64,000 bases of DNA, taken from NCBI GenBank assembly GCA_046484745.1, contig JAWOIJ010000024.1, forward strand, positions 2,787 through 66,786, read 5' to 3'. Made by a program: the position numbers and the translations under genes. How positions within the stretch are numbered: position 1 is the first letter of the stretch; every line of letters begins with the position of its first letter. Source of the DNA: Desulfobacterales bacterium. GTDB taxonomy: Bacteria > Desulfobacterota > Desulfobacteria > Desulfobacterales > SURF-7. The notes beneath the pieces are model-generated. The model saw nothing but the letters and a program-made list of their open reading frames with translations, was not told the DNA's origin and did no database searches. Shown here piece after piece: positions 17,562 to 24,128 of this stretch.

Positions 17562-19001
17562 ATGAAAAAACCGAAACAATTGTCCAGAAAATTTACAACG
17601 CTTCTGATTTATGGTCGCCCTCCCCTTGCTTTTGCCGGGATGATTTGTGCAATCGGGGTTATGTTGACGCGGAATCCGATTTTTTATCTGATCGGGGTAT
17701 CGTGTCTTTTTATCTCCATGACATTCGACCTGGTGGATGGTTGGTTTGCAGCACGTTTTCAACCGAACAGCGCCCTGGCTCATCTGGCGGATCGGATCAT
17801 GGACAAAATTGTTTACTCGATCATCTTCCCGCTGCTTGCGACAGGAATGATGTGGCGAATGCTTTTTATCTCGCCAGGCTTCGTAAAGATCGAGCTTTTA
17901 CATGCTTTGTTTGTGTTGTTTTTATGTGTTACCGTTCTGGTTCGCGATAATTTTGCCTCTTTTATGCGTGGATTTGCCGTCAGAAGAGGCCATGAACCCG
18001 AATCGAGTGAATTTACACGGTTGCGAACCATTGTCGCAGCACCCCTCAGCGCGCTTTTATATGCGCATGCATTTTATCTGCCCGATGGACCGACCTTAAA
18101 ACTGTATTCCTGGATAACCTGGCTCGGCAACATTCCTGTCCGAGGATTTTTTATTCTTGAAATCATCTTTTTGATAATCAACTTCGGTTCCATTGCACGA
18201 TATTGCCGGAGGTACGGCTCTTATTGTCTTGACGAACTCTGTCTTGAAGATGAACAGCTTAGAAAAAAAATCCTTTCCATTTTCCCCAATGCGCTTACCG
18301 TGATGAATGCAATGATGGGACTTCTGGCTGTCTTTTTCGCATACCAGGACAGGATAAAAGAGGCCTATCTGATTATGATCGGTGCCGCCATATTTGATAA
18401 GCTTGACGGCGCAATGGCAAGAAAACTCGGATTGGCGGAGTCCGCTCCCATATCGGAAGGAAAGCACCGGATTACATTTGGCGGCATTATGGATGATATC
18501 GCAGATACCGTAAGCTTCTGTATTGCACCGGCATGGATTTATTATATTTGTCTTTCCGATGTTTCGAACCGGCTTCCGGTGGGGATTATCGCAGTTATTT
18601 ACGCTGTATTTGGCGTTGCACGATTAATCTATTTCACACTGGATAAAACACCGATCCCCGGATATTTTAAAGGTATGCCGACGCCTGCCGCCGCTCTTTT
18701 TGTCACCTCGCCCCTGATCATATTATCCCAGGAACTGGCAGCGAACTCTGAATATGTAATTTTCTGGTATTTCTTTTGTTCGGGTTTGATGATCCTGGCA
18801 GCAATACTGATGAATTTATTCCCGGCAAAATACATCCATGTAGGGCGCTTTATGGACAGAAACCCCTGGTTTGGCCGGATTGATCTGCCTTTGGTTTTTC
18901 TCTTTGCGTTTACACCTTATCTTGGGTATTTTGCTCTGATTCAACTGTTTCTTTACGCGATCTCCCCTTTATGGACAAGAGTTAAAAAACCGGAAAATTA
19001 G
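17562..19001 (+). CDS. Two-domain CDP-alcohol phosphatidyltransferase (PgsA-like + PssA-like)
   Basis: Two DxxDGxxA(R)...DxxxD motifs (DLVDGWFAAR..DRIMD; DKLDGAMAR..DDIAD); PssA-like FKGMPTPAAA. Confidence 0.8.
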   Translation: MKKPKQLSRKFTTLLIYGRPPLAFAGMICAIGVMLTRNPIFYLIGVSCLFISMTFDLVDGWFAARFQPNSALAHLADRIMDKIVYSIIFPLLATGMMWRMLFISPGFVKIELLHALFVLFLCVTVLVRDNFASFMRGFAVRRGHEPESSEFTRLRTIVAAPLSALLYAHAFYLPDGPTLKLYSWITWLGNIPVRGFFILEIIFLIINFGSIARYCRRYGSYCLDELCLEDEQLRKKILSIFPNALTVMNAMMGLLAVFFAYQDRIKEAYLIMIGAAIFDKLDGAMARKLGLAESAPISEGKHRITFGGIMDDIADTVSFCIAPAWIYYICLSDVSNRLPVGIIAVIYAVFGVARLIYFTLDKTPIPGYFKGMPTPAAALFVTSPLIILSQELAANSEYVIFWYFFCSGLMILAAILMNLFPAKYIHVGRFMDRNPWFGRIDLPLVFLFAFTPYLGYFALIQLFLYAISPLWTRVKKPEN

Positions 19002-19162
19002 ATTCCCGGTACTCCTGTCTTATCCGCTTCATTCAGAGGAGATTGAAAACCGGCGGTTGCTTGCCGCTGCTATTCATTCGTTTCAATGAGATCGCCACGT
19101 CGATCCCTGATGGAACATTCAACGATAACGTTTTCTATGCTTATGAATTGTTATGAAAGGAG

Positions 19163-19555
19163 ATGGATATGGATAACAGACATCGGATCGTTCTATACAT
19201 TTTATTTGTTGCTCTTGCACTCGTTTTACAGGGAAATATAGCCTTTGCCGGCAAATCTTCAGTTCAAATCGAAGTTCCGGAATCTGCTGCCGTGGGAGAA
19301 GTAATTTTGATCCAGCTTCATGTATCCCATGAAGGAAACAACTTGTTTCATTATACGGATTGGGTTTACGTGACGATTAATGGAAGCGAGGTCAAAAGGT
19401 GGACGTTCAGTAATTTTGACAAACCTGAATCAGAACATTTCACACGGACGATTAATCATACGATGAACGGCCCCATCAGGATTACAGCCGAATCTGACTG
19501 TAACATACACGGCAGTACAGGTGTTGTTGAAAAAAATGTGGCGATTAAGAAATAG
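19163..19555 (+). CDS. Exported desulfoferrodoxin/superoxide reductase-like protein
   Basis: Signal peptide ending AFA; HVSH..HYTDW..CNIHG resembles the SOR iron site. Confidence 0.65.
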   Translation: MDMDNRHRIVLYILFVALALVLQGNIAFAGKSSVQIEVPESAAVGEVILIQLHVSHEGNNLFHYTDWVYVTINGSEVKRWTFSNFDKPESEHFTRTINHTMNGPIRITAESDCNIHGSTGVVEKNVAIKK

Positions 19556-19563
19556 GTGATTTC

Positions 19564-19749
19564 ATGAAAATCGGAGGTGTTTCTATCCAGCTGATCACAG
19601 GGATTCTGAATGGTCTGCTGGTTCTCTTTCAGGCAGGCTCGGGATTGGGTTATTTTAAAGTTTCGTTCAGCGTGCACCGGAAAACAGGCATCGCTCTGCT
19701 GTTCACGGCAATGATCCATGCCTTTTTTGCGCTATTTGCCCATTCGTAG
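19564..19749 (+). CDS. Small two-helix membrane protein with H-x13-H
   Basis: 61 aa, 8 nt after the SOR-like gene; H38 and H52 on one helix. Confidence 0.6.
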   Translation: MKIGGVSIQLITGILNGLLVLFQAGSGLGYFKVSFSVHRKTGIALLFTAMIHAFFALFAHS

Positions 19750-20013
19750 GCCGGTTCGAACACATATCATTCCGCATTTTTCCGGTCAATCAAGGAATGA
19801 AAAGAATCATACTCGCGGGTCGCCGCCTGCTGTGCAGACTTGCGAACCGAATCCATTTCATAAAAATTTCTTTTCAACGATATGCTGCTTCGCAGCGCTA
19901 AACCGATGAAATTAAAATATGGAAAATAACTTGACACGGGTTGAAGTTTATTATAGAGGTTTCGCAAGTCTATCAAATTACATTAGAGATCAACTTATTT
20001 TATTTATTTTATT

Positions 20014-20100
20014 ATGATGAACATATTCTCAGGCAGCTTTAGCTATTCTTATTTCTGGTGGTACTATTTTATCACCGGTCTGCCTGGCTGTACGCGCTGA
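20014..20100 (+). CDS. Putative attenuator leader peptide MMNIFSGSFSYSYFWWYYFITGLPGCTR
   Basis: 28 codons, 10 aromatic (4F, 4Y, 2W), directly upstream of terminators and the aro operon; weak SD. Confidence 0.85.
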   Translation: MMNIFSGSFSYSYFWWYYFITGLPGCTR

Positions 20101-20125
20101 TTCATAAGAAACATATAAAGCAAAC

Positions 20126-20161
20126 AAAGCCGTGAGCAGAACCAAAATTCACGGCTTTTTT
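20126..20161 (+). terminator. Attenuator terminator hairpin 1
   Basis: aaagccgtga...tcacggcttt followed by further T residues. Confidence 0.7.
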
Positions 20162-20165
20162 AATT

Positions 20166-20201
20166 GGGGCCGTGAAAATCGTTTTCACGGCCCTTTTTTT
20201 T
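20166..20201 (+). terminator. Attenuator terminator hairpin 2
   Basis: gggccgtgaaaa-tcg-ttttcacggccc followed by T8. Confidence 0.85.
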
Positions 20202-20231
20202 ACTTTCTATAACAAAAGGGAGAACAGTGCC

Positions 20232-21032
20232 ATGACAATCCTCGGGAAAAAAATCAGAATGGAAAGAATTATTAATCGGAATACACGCAAAACCGTGATT
20301 GTTCCAATGGATCACGGAATTTCAGTCGGACCGATACCAGGCGTGATTGACATGAAAAGTGCGGTTCAAAACGTCGCTGAGGGAGGAGCAAACGCGATTG
20401 TCGAACATAAAGGCCTTGTGGGTGAAGGCCATCGCGGGCAGGGAAATGATATCGGGCTGATCATTCATCTCTCCGCATCAACCAATTTGTCACCCTACCC
20501 TCACGCGAAAACGCTTGTCTGCTCGGTAGAGGAAGCCATCAAGCTCGGTGCGGATGCGATATCGATTCATATCAATCTGGGAAACGGGCAGGAGAAAGAG
20601 ATGCTTAAGGATTTTGGCAGAGTCAGCTACGAAGCAAGAACCTGGGGAATGCCGCTTCTCGCGATGATATACCCGCGTGGCGAGAAAATTACAGACGAAT
20701 ATCATGTGGATGTCATCAAACATGCGGCAAGGGTTGGTAACGAAATGGGTGCGGACATTGTAAAGGTCTCCTATACGGGAAGCCCGGAGTCTTTCCGCAA
20801 GGTAGTCGAAGGATGTTCCATACCGGTCGTAATCGCTGGGGGTGCAAAAATGGATTCCGATCAGGAAATTCTTGAAATGGTAAAGGGTTCGATAGAGGCA
20901 GGCGGTGCGGGTGTTTCTATCGGTCGAAATGTTTTTCAGCATGAAAACCCGAAAAAAATGGTTAAAGCCATCTCCTCCATTGTACATGGAGGAAAAAGTG
21001 TAGCTGAAGCGCTTGATATTCTAAGCAGCTGA
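20232..21032 (+). CDS. 2-amino-3,7-dideoxy-D-threo-hept-6-ulosonate synthase (class I aldolase, DhnA family)
   Basis: [31 protein letters not shown]; directly precedes DHQ synthase II; start at MTILGK (SD GGGAG). Confidence 0.88.
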
Positions 21033-21150
21033 AGTAATCGTTCGATATCACATTCACGATACGATTTGTGATCGAAACCATTTCAGACGGAAACGGAAAT
21101 GGATTTCGAATTCAGGAAAGGGCCGATAAGGCAAACGGAGGCACAAAACA

Positions 21151-22143
21151 ATGCGTAAGATCTGGGTTAAAGTTGATCCGTGGAATAAAAAACTGGTTAC
21201 AACCGCACTTGAAGGTGGAGCAGACGCAATCATGGTTCCGAAAGGCTATTCCAGACAGGTTAAAGAACTGGGAAGGATTACAACCATCTCGGACGATGGC
21301 GATTTGAAGCCGGATCAGGATGTTGTGTTCTTTACCATAAAAAGCGGAAAAGATGAAGAAGAGATCTTAAAGCTTTGCCAGAGCAAGAAAGTTATTTTAC
21401 ACTGCACAGACTGGACGATCATTCCCCTTGAAAACCTGATTGCAAAAGGAGCGGAAGTGATTGCGCAGGTTCAGAATCTTGAAGAAGCACAGACGGCATT
21501 TGGCATTCTGGAAAAAGGGGTGAGCCATATTCTCTTTCATACACAGAATCCAATTGAGTTGAAACGATCTCTTTCCAGGCTTCTTGAAGAAGGAGAAACA
21601 ACCGCCCTTCAACATGCCGAGGTCATTGAGATTGTTCCGGTAGGCATGGGTGACCGTGTTTGCGTGGATACCTGCACTTCGATGTCAATTGGAGAAGGAA
21701 TGCTTGTCGGTAACAGCAGCAGCGCGCTTTTTCTGATTCATTCGGAAAGTATTTCAAACCCATATGTATCTCCTAGACCCTTCCGGGTCAATGCCGGAGC
21801 GGTTCATGCCTATACCAGGGTTCCCGGCGGAAAAACACGGTATCTTTCCGAACTGTCTGCAGGAGACCAGATTCTCATTACGGATTTTAAAGGAAAAACA
21901 AGTACAGGAATCGTCGGAAGGTTAAAAATTGAAAAACGTCCCATGATGCTCCTCAAAGCCAAAATTGGTGATCATGTCGCGACAACGATCCTTCAAAATG
22001 CGGAGACAATCAGGTTGACCGACCCATCCGGAAAGCCGGTATCTGTTGTCTCCCTGAAACCCGGGGACAAAATATTAGCGGCATTGGAGGAAGGCGGGCG
22101 ACATTTTGGCTATAAAATCGATGAAACAATCACTGAAAAATAA
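21151..22143 (+). CDS. 3-dehydroquinate synthase II (archaeal type)
   Basis: DWTIIPLENLIA, GDRVCVDT, RPFRVNAGAVHAY, LQNAETIRL, GRHFG. Confidence 0.93.
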   Translation: MRKIWVKVDPWNKKLVTTALEGGADAIMVPKGYSRQVKELGRITTISDDGDLKPDQDVVFFTIKSGKDEEEILKLCQSKKVILHCTDWTIIPLENLIAKGAEVIAQVQNLEEAQTAFGILEKGVSHILFHTQNPIELKRSLSRLLEEGETTALQHAEVIEIVPVGMGDRVCVDTCTSMSIGEGMLVGNSSSALFLIHSESISNPYVSPRPFRVNAGAVHAYTRVPGGKTRYLSELSAGDQILITDFKGKTSTGIVGRLKIEKRPMMLLKAKIGDHVATTILQNAETIRLTDPSGKPVSVVSLKPGDKILAALEEGGRHFGYKIDETITEK

Positions 22144-22155
22144 CGTGGAGAAAAG

Positions 22156-23265
22156 ATGACCGGAGAGAAAAAAAATATTGCCGGGATGGCCGCAGATTCC
22201 ATTGAATCTCTTATAAATTCAATAAATTTGATTGACAATCAACTGCTGAACCTGATCAATAAGCGGGTTGAATTCGTGCTGAAGATGGGGGCGCTGCAAC
22301 AAGAAACAAATGTGGAAACCCTCCTTCATTCTGATGAAGAAAGATCGATAAGGCGGCTTTTGGAAGTGAATTCCGGTCCCCTTGATCCAAAAAAAATACG
22401 AACGTTGTTTAAAAATATATTTTCCCTGTCACAAGAGGCTATCAAGCCTCGACGCATTTCTTACCTGGGACCGGAAGCAACCTTTACTCATATCGCGGCC
22501 ATCAATCATTTTGGAGACTCAGCCTCGTTTCTGCCGCAACCCGGTATCCGGGATGTGTTTCTTGAAGTGGAAAAAGAAAGATGTGATTTCGGAGTGGTTC
22601 CGGTTGAAAATTCAATTGAAGGATCTGTAAATTATACCCTGGACCTGTTTTTTGAATCCAACTTGAAAATTTGTGCTGAAAAATACCTGACCATTTCCCA
22701 TGATCTGCTTTCCAAATCTAAAAAACCGGATGAAATAAAAGTTGTTTATTCTCACCCCCAGCCAATCGCCCAGTGCCGCGGATGGCTTCGCAAGAATATA
22801 CCGAATGCGAGAATTGAGGAATGCAAAAGCACTTCCTTTGCGGCACAAAAGGTTGTCGACATTCAAAATGCGGCGGCAATCGCAAGCAGCGAGGCAGCAA
22901 GAATCTATCATTTGAACGTCGTGGCTTCCCGGATTGAGGACCATCCCAACAACACAACCCGTTTTCTGATTATCGGAAAAAATGAAACCCCCCGGACTGG
23001 AGATGACAAAACATCCATCATGTTTGCAGCAGCTCATGTTCCCGGGTCTCTTTACAAAACACTGGAACCCATCGCGAAATCCGGAATCAATATGTTGAAA
23101 CTGGAGTCAAGGCCCAGCAAACATGAAAACTGGAGTTATTTTTTCTTTGTAGACCTTGAAGGACATATGGATGACACAAAAATACAGGATACAATTTCAA
23201 AAATGAAAAAGCTTTGCCTTTTTTTGAAAATTCTTGGATCCTATCCAAAATCAATCGACATGTAA
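22156..23265 (+). CDS. pheA: Chorismate mutase/prephenate dehydratase (CM domain degenerate)
   Basis: YLGPEATFTH, PVENSIEGSV, NTTRF, ACT domain KLESRP, LGSYP. Confidence 0.92.
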   Translation: MTGEKKNIAGMAADSIESLINSINLIDNQLLNLINKRVEFVLKMGALQQETNVETLLHSDEERSIRRLLEVNSGPLDPKKIRTLFKNIFSLSQEAIKPRRISYLGPEATFTHIAAINHFGDSASFLPQPGIRDVFLEVEKERCDFGVVPVENSIEGSVNYTLDLFFESNLKICAEKYLTISHDLLSKSKKPDEIKVVYSHPQPIAQCRGWLRKNIPNARIEECKSTSFAAQKVVDIQNAAAIASSEAARIYHLNVVASRIEDHPNNTTRFLIIGKNETPRTGDDKTSIMFAAAHVPGSLYKTLEPIAKSGINMLKLESRPSKHENWSYFFFVDLEGHMDDTKIQDTISKMKKLCLFLKILGSYPKSIDM

Positions 23266-23318
23266 GACGATTTTCAAACAACAATTTGCAACTTAGCGTT
23301 AACAGGAATAAATTTCAC

Positions 23319-24128
23319 ATGAAAATAGATACAACAACTTCCCTCTTTGGTGTTATCGGAGATCCGGTCGCACACAGTTTAAGTCCGGTCATGCATAACA
23401 GAGCCTTTTCCGAGATCGGGTATAACGCTATCTACCTGGCCTTTCATGTCACCGATCTCGCATCGGCGATCAAAGGTGTAAAGGGACTCGGGATAAAAGG
23501 TCTCAGCGTAACCATACCGCACAAGGTGTCGATCATGAGCTTGTTGGATGAGATCGATGAAATGGCTGAAAAGATCGGTGCGGTCAATACGGTTGTGAAC
23601 AAGAGCGGAAAGCTCTTTGGATATAATACAGACTGTCTTGGCGCTATCCATGCGCTTCGAGAAAAAACCGATATCAAAAATAAAAATATTTTAATGATCG
23701 GCGCAGGAGGTGCTGCCCGGGCCATTGGTTTCGGAATTTTATCAGAAGGCGGGAATCTCACCATTATCAATATTTTAGAAGATGAGGGAAAGGCGCTGTC
23801 TGAAATCCTTGGAGTCCCCTATTATCATCTTTCTGAATTCCGCGGCTTTGAATATGATATCCTGATCAACACCACGCCTGTTGGAATGTCTCCCAGGATG
23901 AATAAAATGCCGGTAGAGCCGATCGACCTGAGACCCGACAAGGTAGTGATGGATATCATTTATAACCCCTTAAAGACAATGCTCATGGCAGAGGCTGAAA
24001 AAATCGGATGTTCTACCGTAGATGGTGTTTCCATGTTTGTACACCAGGGCGCGGCGCAATTTGAAATGTGGACAGGAAAAAAAGCACCTGTTGAAATTAT
24101 GCGGCATACGGTATTAAATGAACTATAG
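23319..24128 (+). CDS. aroE: Shikimate dehydrogenase
   Basis: HSLSPVMHN, SVTIPHK, GAVNT, NTD, GAGGAA; start at MKIDTT. Confidence 0.95.
   Translation: MKIDTTTSLFGVIGDPVAHSLSPVMHNRAFSEIGYNAIYLAFHVTDLASAIKGVKGLGIKGLSVTIPHKVSIMSLLDEIDEMAEKIGAVNTVVNKSGKLFGYNTDCLGAIHALREKTDIKNKNILMIGAGGAARAIGFGILSEGGNLTIINILEDEGKALSEILGVPYYHLSEFRGFEYDILINTTPVGMSPRMNKMPVEPIDLRPDKVVMDIIYNPLKTMLMAEAEKIGCSTVDGVSMFVHQGAAQFEMWTGKKAPVEIMRHTVLNEL

Follow-up and report, generated by a model that had tools for sequence, protein, structure and literature searches.

A probable six-segment leader-peptide attenuator with two serial terminators upstream of an aromatic biosynthesis operon in a Desulfobacterales bacterium

A 64,000-nt stretch of a Desulfobacterales genome (assembly GCA_046484745.1, contig JAWOIJ010000024.1, positions 2,787 to 66,786 of the forward strand; hereinafter, the window, numbered from its first letter) contains, upstream of the genes aroA', aroB', pheA and aroE, a short open reading frame (ORF) rich in aromatic codons, followed by RNA segments that can pair in alternative ways. 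This region is, in our opinion, probably a ribosome-mediated leader-peptide attenuator of the aromatic operon, organized as a six-segment relay that ends in two serial intrinsic terminators, further denoted T1 and T2. Judging from the comparative sequence data, we regard the conserved attenuator at this locus as real. The relay had been suggested in an initial annotation of the region, according to which pairing of segments 2 and 3 (2:3) frees segment 4 to capture segment 5 (4:5); it is still the best explanation, likely to be correct, and has gained comparative backing for both 2:3 and 4:5.

The leader ORF has nine aromatic codons (4 Phe, 3 Tyr, 2 Trp), all within codons 9–19, and thus a cluster of codons for the amino acids made by the downstream operon, whose genes constitute the entry and the Phe branch of aromatic synthesis. 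The leader stop codon is near enough to segment 2 for the latter to be masked by a terminating ribosome. T1 and T2, each a hairpin with a U-run after it, are situated downstream of the leader ORF and upstream of the first structural gene, and an alternative excluding the terminator is available, as 2:3 takes the loop and the upper 5' arm of T1, while 1:2 competes for segment 2. Only about 30 nt separate the U-run of T2 from the aroA' start codon, and a promoter would not fit there, hence expression of the operon requires bypass of T2. All sequence strings listed in the initial annotation were recovered, ctgcctg at 20080–20086 and caggcag, ggtctgcctggct, agccgtgagcagaacc, ttcacggctt and gggccgtgaa at the coordinates given in Table 1.

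Unconstrained folding of 20000–20215 yields 1:2 with its inner hairpin, T1 and T2 at –58.7 kcal/mol, compared to –40.3 ± 3.9 kcal/mol in shuffled sequences (z = –4.7, none of 200 as good). The initially proposed pairings 1:2, 3:4 (T1) and 5:6 (T2) are hence reproduced, and they are also backed by covariation. Folded in isolation, 2:3 has –18.6 kcal/mol, 4:5 –15.0, T1 –12.5, and T2 –21.3, and the sums for the two states are nearly equal (T1 plus T2, –33.8 kcal/mol; 2:3 plus 4:5, –33.6). The 2:3 helix was found with 13 pairs and bulges, as in the initial annotation, and has covariation backing; the suggested pairing of segments 4 and 5 is feasible (11 pairs, 90.1% paired in homologues). As 2:3 outweighs T1 and covers its loop, T1 would be unable to nucleate. 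The part of T2 not covered by 4:5, its top, has A-U pairs alone and a loop of 3 nt. T2 and the hairpin 4:5 are detected by a consensus terminator scan, which misses T1, because the loop limit of the scan is 8 nt and the T1 loop has 11 nt. Hairpins of the GCCGTG..CACGGC type occur three times in the 4.3-Mb genome, in T1, in T2, and in T2 of a trp attenuator described below; this restriction to attenuators rules out a mobile element or a generic terminator or repeat.

The proposed mechanism would operate as follows. If charged Phe-, Tyr- and Trp-tRNAs are plentiful, the ribosome would arrive at the leader stop codon and mask segment 2; were the leader not translated, 1:2 would form instead, with the same outcome. 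With segment 2 masked or engaged in 1:2, segments 3 and 4 would form T1, then segments 5 and 6 would form T2, and transcription would end at either U-tract. A ribosome stalled in the aromatic codons (codons 9–17) would cover segment 1 or keep it apart from segment 2, blocking 1:2; the free segment 2 would pair with the loop and the upper 5' arm of T1, leaving segment 4 unpaired. Segment 4 would then capture the emerging segment 5 ahead of the synthesis of segment 6; the latter would find no free partner, and the polymerase would pass both U-tracts into aroA'. A plausible reason for two terminators is that the large T1 loop, carrying the sequence complementary to segment 2, would make T1 leaky, and the compact T2 would catch the escapes, whereas the shared arms would place T2 under the same control as T1. 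We infer the stalling itself, the order of folding, and the persistence of 4:5 for as long as is needed to defeat T2. The sequence data themselves show which segments are complementary, how these are conserved and covary, where the stop codon is placed, and what function the genes downstream have.

Homologues were collected in two ways. A 401-nt DNA query gave matches in 36 of 61 related genomes, and 30 loci were retrieved; the leader and the hairpins are found in 28 of these 30 loci, reached by DNA similarity alone. A degenerate pattern (segment 2, T1 arms and U-run) matched at least 119 stretches in public genomes, and among the matches listed, 61 having an aromatic ORF were kept and 58 lacking it were dropped (chance matches in unrelated, mostly GC-rich taxa). 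As the pattern demanded segment 2, the T1 arms and the U-run, T1 is present in the pattern-derived rows by construction. The titles of the pattern-derived sequences comprise Desulfobacterales, Desulfatibacillum, Desulfosudis, Desulfocicer, Desulfatirhabdiaceae, an Olavius symbiont, and one SAR324 bin. Removal of 14 exact duplicates left 75 leaders, 73 of which were aligned with a covariance model (R1; 178 positions, 30 pairs), yielding an order-level alignment of 73 distinct homologues from Desulfobacterales-type genomes (alignment A4). The rows excluded are L101 (a run of N), L142 (weak, 50 bits), L025 and L030 (the aroA' coding part only), and reverse-strand matches to palindromic hairpins. 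A further set of 50 more distant sequences from the same phylum (A6) was built with 40 additionally fetched regions. RNAalifold applied to a plain MAFFT alignment of the 73 sequences recovered only seven T1 pairs, and that alignment was replaced by the covariance-model one.

Both hairpins are present in 63 of the 73 order-level homologues, and a T2 hairpin of –13 kcal/mol or better, in 27 of the 28 similarity-found loci. At least six U within 9 nt after the T1 stem are observed in 69 of 73 homologues. T2 is present in 44 of 45 leaders with aroA' downstream and in 11 of 19 with a DAHP-synthase-like gene downstream.

In A4, the terminated form (1:2, T1 and T2) is paired in 89.6% of cases, compared to 84.0% in column shuffles, and has 169 cells changed on both sides of a pair against 60.1 in shuffles (0/500). 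Helix 1:2 is 92.8% paired, with both-side changes at four of seven pairs; the T1 helix, 96.3%; the T2 helix, 86.5%, with both-side changes at 10 of 11 pairs. The alternative form is supported likewise: pairing of 2:3 and 4:5 together reaches 91.9% (89.1% in shuffles), the both-side cells numbering 56 against 21.8 ± 4.5 (0/500 shuffles); for 4:5 taken separately, the values are 90.1% (86.1%) and 45 against 20.3 (0/500). Sliding the partner columns by 1–3 positions reduces pairing to 33–49% in all cases. Within 1:2, the inner hairpin has compensated variants (GGTAC/GTACC, GGTATTA/TAATACC) among homologues, as seen by eye and with no formal count.

Moreover, we compared mean duplex energies (in kcal/mol) of segments with their own and with foreign partners in 63 species, a procedure that is alignment-free. 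The own partner is preferred for 3:4 (–16.45 with own, –13.64 with foreign; z = –10.7), 5:6 (–17.95 and –14.88; z = –10.2), 4:5 (–15.08 and –13.22, margin 1.9; z = –7.4, 0/2000) and 2:3 (–21.60 and –20.04, margin 1.6; z = –7.1, 0/2000), the control 3:6 having a margin of 0.4 (–11.61 and –11.19; z = –1.8, 70/2000). Covariation across homologues, named in the initial annotation as a means of verification, backs all five pairings: 1:2, 3:4, 5:6, 2:3 and 4:5.

An aromatic-rich ORF extends over segment 2 in all 73 order-level and in 47 of 50 phylum-level homologues. The end of its stop codon is 11 nt past the segment-2 core in 51 of the 73 (median 11, range 5–26), so that a terminating ribosome would cover segment 2, as had been assumed in the initial annotation. 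A promoter-like TTGACA element was found by eye and afterwards counted: of 72 homologues, 68 have TTGAC[AT] in the 130 nt preceding the model start, most often between –65 and –83. A consensus promoter scan does not list this conserved element, and no clear Shine–Dalgarno sequence precedes the leader ATG in the window. The latter would be expected if the small ORF were untranslated and the hairpins merely ended transcription from upstream genes, with no attenuator at all. This explanation is scarcely credible: the ORF with its aromatic run has been retained almost throughout the homologues, the TTGACA element is situated between the upstream gene and the leader, and the same leader precedes either aroA' or the DAHP-synthase-like gene in different genomes.

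Several other observations, along with the missing Shine–Dalgarno sequence, weigh against the relay. In the window T2 is approximately 6 kcal/mol more stable than 4:5, and the combination of the lowest energy is 2:3 plus T2 (–39.9 kcal/mol). As T2 outweighs 4:5 at equilibrium, its relief must be kinetic, and given these model energies may perhaps be partial. Among the homologues (means over 63: T1 –19.0, T2 –19.2, 4:5 –16.8 kcal/mol), the stability of 4:5 equals or exceeds that of T2 in only 18 of 63 and is within 3 kcal/mol of it in 35 of 63. The number of 4:5 pairs with any both-side change in A4 is five, against 3.8 in shuffles, a value reached in 96 of 500. A tree-based test of independent changes, underpowered as the tree built from the short leader has only one or two supported pairs, gives p = 1 and speaks for neither side, and relatedness may be a source of the covariation. 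Finally, the 61 pattern-derived sequences were found through a pattern that itself required T1; T2 and 4:5 were not demanded by it.

These energies agree with a simpler scheme, in which only T1 is regulated, by the choice among 1:2, 2:3 and 3:4, T2 is an unregulated leaky backstop lowering output, and 4:5 has no function. In its favor are the greater stability of T2 than of 4:5, seen both in the window and in 45 of 63 homologues, and the sufficiency of one terminator in 8 of 19 leaders before the DAHP-synthase-like gene and in the leader of the second aroA' of this genome. Still, we consider this scheme unlikely. An unregulated T2 need not resemble T1, and yet the core is common to both within a genome and changes in both across lineages; moreover, a strong constitutive terminator before essential biosynthetic genes would lower the basal and the induced levels alike. 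In six relatives (L015, L026, L164, L170, L182, L195) the first hairpin lacks the U-tract and the same chain is retained; T2 there is the sole terminator, which must be the regulated one and can be reached from the leader only via 3:4 and 4:5. These sequences are the strongest argument that 4:5 would be functional in this attenuator family.

Another possibility is that T2 is a duplicate of T1, and repeated duplication or conversion, not selection for 4:5, maintains their likeness; the initial annotation had already pointed to a duplicated sequence. If 3:4, 4:5 and 5:6 all hold, complementarity of 3 and 6 is automatic, therefore only wobble pairs discriminate between the two explanations. At the order level, 3:6 pairing is not above the controls (88.3% against 87.3%, 31/500), whereas 4:5 is. 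At the main variable position of the 73 sequences, 4:5 is broken in five and 3:6 in 17. At the main Y/R position, among sequences of A4 and A6 in which T1 is unlike T2, 4:5 is kept as G.U (CGTA, CGTG) in 17 and broken as A.C (TACG) in four. Moreover, the likeness does not go beyond the 8–9 nt required for 4:5; in every genome T1 and T2 have different loops and different upper stems. The motif is no genomic repeat, as it occurs only three times. On the other side, and hence also against the relay, are two other variable positions, at which the mixed states have no preference for 4:5: states of the GCAT type, with 4:5 broken, are found in three to five A4 sequences, and A6 is split four to two. 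In A6 the four arms covary jointly, 3:6 as much as 4:5: 3:6 is 90.4% paired against 85.2%, with 21 both-side cells against 6.8, and 4:5 is 89.2% paired against 84.5%, with 25 against 7.9. Judging from these alignments, 3:6 covariation in A6 fits the full chain and mere co-evolution of the hairpins alike. All in all, maintenance of the likeness by duplication seems quite improbable. Co-variation of the T1 and T2 cores is firm at the level of sequence comparison, and its attribution specifically to 4:5 is suggested more modestly, by the moderate counts of mixed states and by the logic of the relatives lacking the first U-tract.

The GCCGTG hairpin motif shared by the two terminators could also be bound by a protein or another trans-acting factor (TRAP-like or a different antiterminator), the leader ORF being minor. 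High conservation of the motif in the order and its confinement to attenuators in this genome agree with such a factor, but the motif varies between lineages with the pairing retained, the leader kinds (aromatic, Trp-only, Val/Ile-rich) match the operons in part (as seen for trpE and aroA'), and segment 2 and the stop-codon position are conserved as the ribosome model requires. We consider such a factor very improbable.

Candidate attenuators of this family are not restricted to one order. Of 151 genomes sampled from the phylum, 85 (from 64 of 111 genera) match the R1 model with E up to 1e-4, and both hairpins are found in 43 of 50 A6 sequences, a count biased by the inclusion of T2 in the model. 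The A6 leaders are aromatic, Trp-only (WWW or WWWW; e.g., L174, L184, L193, L197, L198), and in one case (L199) Val/Ile-rich. The shared core varies by lineage (GCCGTGG, GCCATGG, GCCGCGG, GCCACGG, CCCCGRG) and is identical in T1 and T2 within a genome; segment 2 and the T1 loop also change jointly, e.g., from CTGCC/GGCAG to CTACC/GGTAG. Each of the three codon phases is used to read the segment-2 core (18, 17 and 12 of 47; as G-L-P in some leaders and V-C-P in others), hence the conservation concerns the RNA rather than the peptide. We lean slightly towards the view that relay attenuation operates throughout the phylum (Desulfobacterota/Thermodesulfobacteriota), that is, that a single sensing event at the ribosome is relayed through successive, mutually exclusive hairpins to two serial terminators, whose common 8–9-nt core lets the 3' arm of T1 trap the 5' arm of T2, that such attenuation serves aromatic, Trp-only and probably branched-chain leaders, and that it drifts between two-terminator and his-like one-terminator forms.

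Individual loci illustrate this variety. The Val/Ile-rich ORF (..LIVPGSVVVVIVPRG..) precedes paired hairpins at L199:401-562(-), and a Leu-rich ORF is situated ahead of paired hairpins of the same type at L183:401-582(-); judging from these sequences, the two-hairpin chassis may serve branched-chain amino-acid operons too. The genome studied here has, outside the window, a Trp leader MNQTGNIISQYWWWQAYLKELACGT (..QYWWWQ..) at L151:1501-1687 (-), that is, G000:C96:23844-24030, after which come two tandem terminators, again with this core, and then a trpE-like gene (MHLNQFPDREAFQ..); 1:2, 2:3 and 4:5 can be drawn there by eye. A second aroA' paralogue of the same genome (L152, G000:C2:62493-62666 (-)) has its own aromatic leader (MMNSRGKKLQATCFEYFSFFSWNCGLDGGD) and one clear terminator. 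Several genomes have a second attenuator of this family on the other strand, at a distance of a few hundred bases from the first one (L097:24-178(-), L071:28-203(-), L014:1186-1339(-), L107:27-179(-), L201:21-193(-)), and in the divergent pair of L201 it is a Trp leader.

Attenuation by leader peptides is a textbook mechanism, most known cases having one terminator and coming from Proteobacteria and Actinobacteria. Johnston et al. reportedly described the his attenuator of Salmonella and E. coli as a six-segment cascade in 1980. In that system the regulatory codons form a run in the leader peptide, which is followed by hairpins A:B, C:D and E:F or the shifted pairs B:C and D:E, and only the last hairpin is a terminator. 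The attenuator described here is similar in having three consecutive hairpins (1:2, 3:4, 5:6) against a shifted set (2:3, 4:5), with the signal relayed through the middle hairpin. It differs in that the middle hairpin 3:4 has a U-tract of its own (U6 in the window, and a U-tract in most homologues, as counted above), so that the two terminators would be switched together; only the six relatives without the first U-tract have the his-like one-terminator form. The initial annotation had presented the relay as an extension of the classic four-segment model, which overlooks the his cascade; the feature that sets the present system apart is a middle hairpin that is itself a terminator.

The two-state model of the his attenuator is summarized in a passage of PMC3896937. 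Leader-peptide attenuation is also established for trpL, pheL-pheA and pheM-pheST of E. coli (as outlined in a section of PMC11802643), where, similarly, a stall at codons for the end product picks the antiterminator and the downstream genes belong to the same pathway. Unlike these four-segment, one-terminator systems, the leader considered here contains Phe, Tyr and Trp codons together and would control the genes of the common entry, aroA' and aroB'. The attenuator of Corynebacterium glutamicum aroR-aroF, with a Phe-Tyr-Phe leader peptide (Neshat et al., 2014, as cited in a passage of PMC11802643), also has an aromatic leader peptide before the first gene of the common aromatic pathway, but belongs to another phylum, is unrelated in sequence, and precedes a DAHP synthase gene rather than aroA'. 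Tandem riboswitches and T-boxes, too, place two serial terminators in one leader, e.g., the two tandem THI elements upstream of Desulfovibrio thiSGHFE (in the relevant passage of PMC545781); there each terminator has its own sensor, unlike the single leader peptide here, which would be coupled to both terminators via the shared arms.

For sulfate reducers, a database-predicted attenuator upstream of the D. vulgaris aroA' supraoperon is mentioned in PMC1173090, and possible use of a pheL gene in Desulfobacterium autotrophicum, in one sentence of PMC3082878. These mentions agree with ours in the presence of an attenuator or leader, but in the passages concerned they are of one line and give no structure, second terminator or 4:5 pairing. 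A literature search yielded no description of a two-terminator leader-peptide relay, a search with D. vulgaris locus tags gave no paper with those tags among the top matches listed, and a search by terms only found no mention of an aromatic attenuator in this group in the texts of Rodionov 2004 (PMC545781) and Naville 2010 (PMC2965389). Rfam cmscan of 19000–21500 with E up to 10 gave 11 weak matches, far below the gathering scores, and no leader family.

The RNA data consist of metatranscriptome contigs only, which do not show 3' ends; two of the five listed runs cover a small share of the stretch. In the region 19700–20900, the leader part (19700–20136) has no contig coverage, a gap that is uninformative. 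One 177-nt contig from a sediment metatranscriptome, originating from a near relative (two other letters and one insertion), covers 20137–20312, i.e., extends across T2 into aroA'. It is at most a weak hint of read-through RNA, DNA carry-over being possible.

The coordinates of the attenuator and of the operon are collected in Table 1. Upstream of them, a 479-aa membrane protein is encoded at 17562–19001 (+), whose C-terminal half matches CDP-diacylglycerol--serine O-phosphatidyltransferase models below the cut-offs and whose N-terminal part weakly matches pgsA-type models; on the basis of these matches, it may have two tandem CDP-alcohol phosphatidyltransferase domains. It is followed by a 130-aa protein with a signal-like N-terminus at 19163–19555 (+), which weakly matches the ferrous-iron-binding domain of desulfoferrodoxin (E = 1e-4, not reaching the cut-off), and then by a 61-aa hydrophobic ORF at 19564–19749.

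Table 1. Features of the predicted attenuator and of the downstream operon (window coordinates).
Feature	Coordinates	Strand	Description
Promoter-like element	19931..19957	+	TTGACA 19931-36, 15 nt, possible –10 hexamer TATAGA 19952-57; read by eye
Leader ORF	20014..20100	+	28 codons, MMNIFSGSFSYSYFWWYYFITGLPGCTR; translation from the ORF list
Segment 1 (caggcag)	20030..20036	+	partner, segment 2; unconstrained fold
Inner hairpin of aromatic codons (ctggtggta..tatcaccgg)	20055..20078	+	inside 1:2; from folds
Segment 2 (ggtctgcctggct)	20077..20089	+	partners, segment 1 or (T1 antiterminator) segment 3
Segment 3 (agccgtgagcagaacc)	20128..20143	+	T1 5' arm and loop; loop gcagaacc, the part pairing with segment 2
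Terminator 1 (T1)	20127..20161	+	stem 20127-36 with 20148-57, 11-nt loop, U6 20156-61
Segment 4 (ttcacggctt)	20148..20157	+	T1 3' arm; alternative partner, segment 5
4:5 hairpin	20148..20176	+	11 pairs, –15.0 kcal/mol
Segment 5 (gggccgtgaa)	20167..20176	+	T2 5' arm; alternative partner, segment 4
Terminator 2 (T2)	20166..20201	+	13-pair stem 20166-94, 3-nt loop, U8 20194-201
Putatively regulated operon, 4 genes	20232..24128	+	NCBIfam matches above curated cut-offs
aroA' (ADH synthase; 2-amino-3,7-dideoxy-D-threo-hept-6-ulosonate synthase)	20232-21032	+	NF005556, 407.9 bits
aroB' (dehydroquinate synthase II)	21151-22143	+	NF002627, 500.9 bits
pheA (chorismate mutase/prephenate dehydratase)	22156-23265	+	NF008865, 288.0 bits
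aroE (shikimate dehydrogenase)	23319-24128	+	NF001319, 288.9 bits

The predicted attenuator places the attenuation principle in sulfate reducers and their kin, ahead of the archaeal-type aroA'/aroB' entry into aromatic synthesis. If the relay is true, the strong conservation of the 8-nt core would be explained by the need for four arms to change together, two serial switched terminators would multiply repression and sharpen the response with no extra sensor, and would constitute a natural case of chained RNA switches, offering a design rule for synthetic attenuators. The R1 covariance model, given its matches across the phylum, can serve for leader annotation and for prediction of amino-acid regulons in these mostly uncultured organisms.

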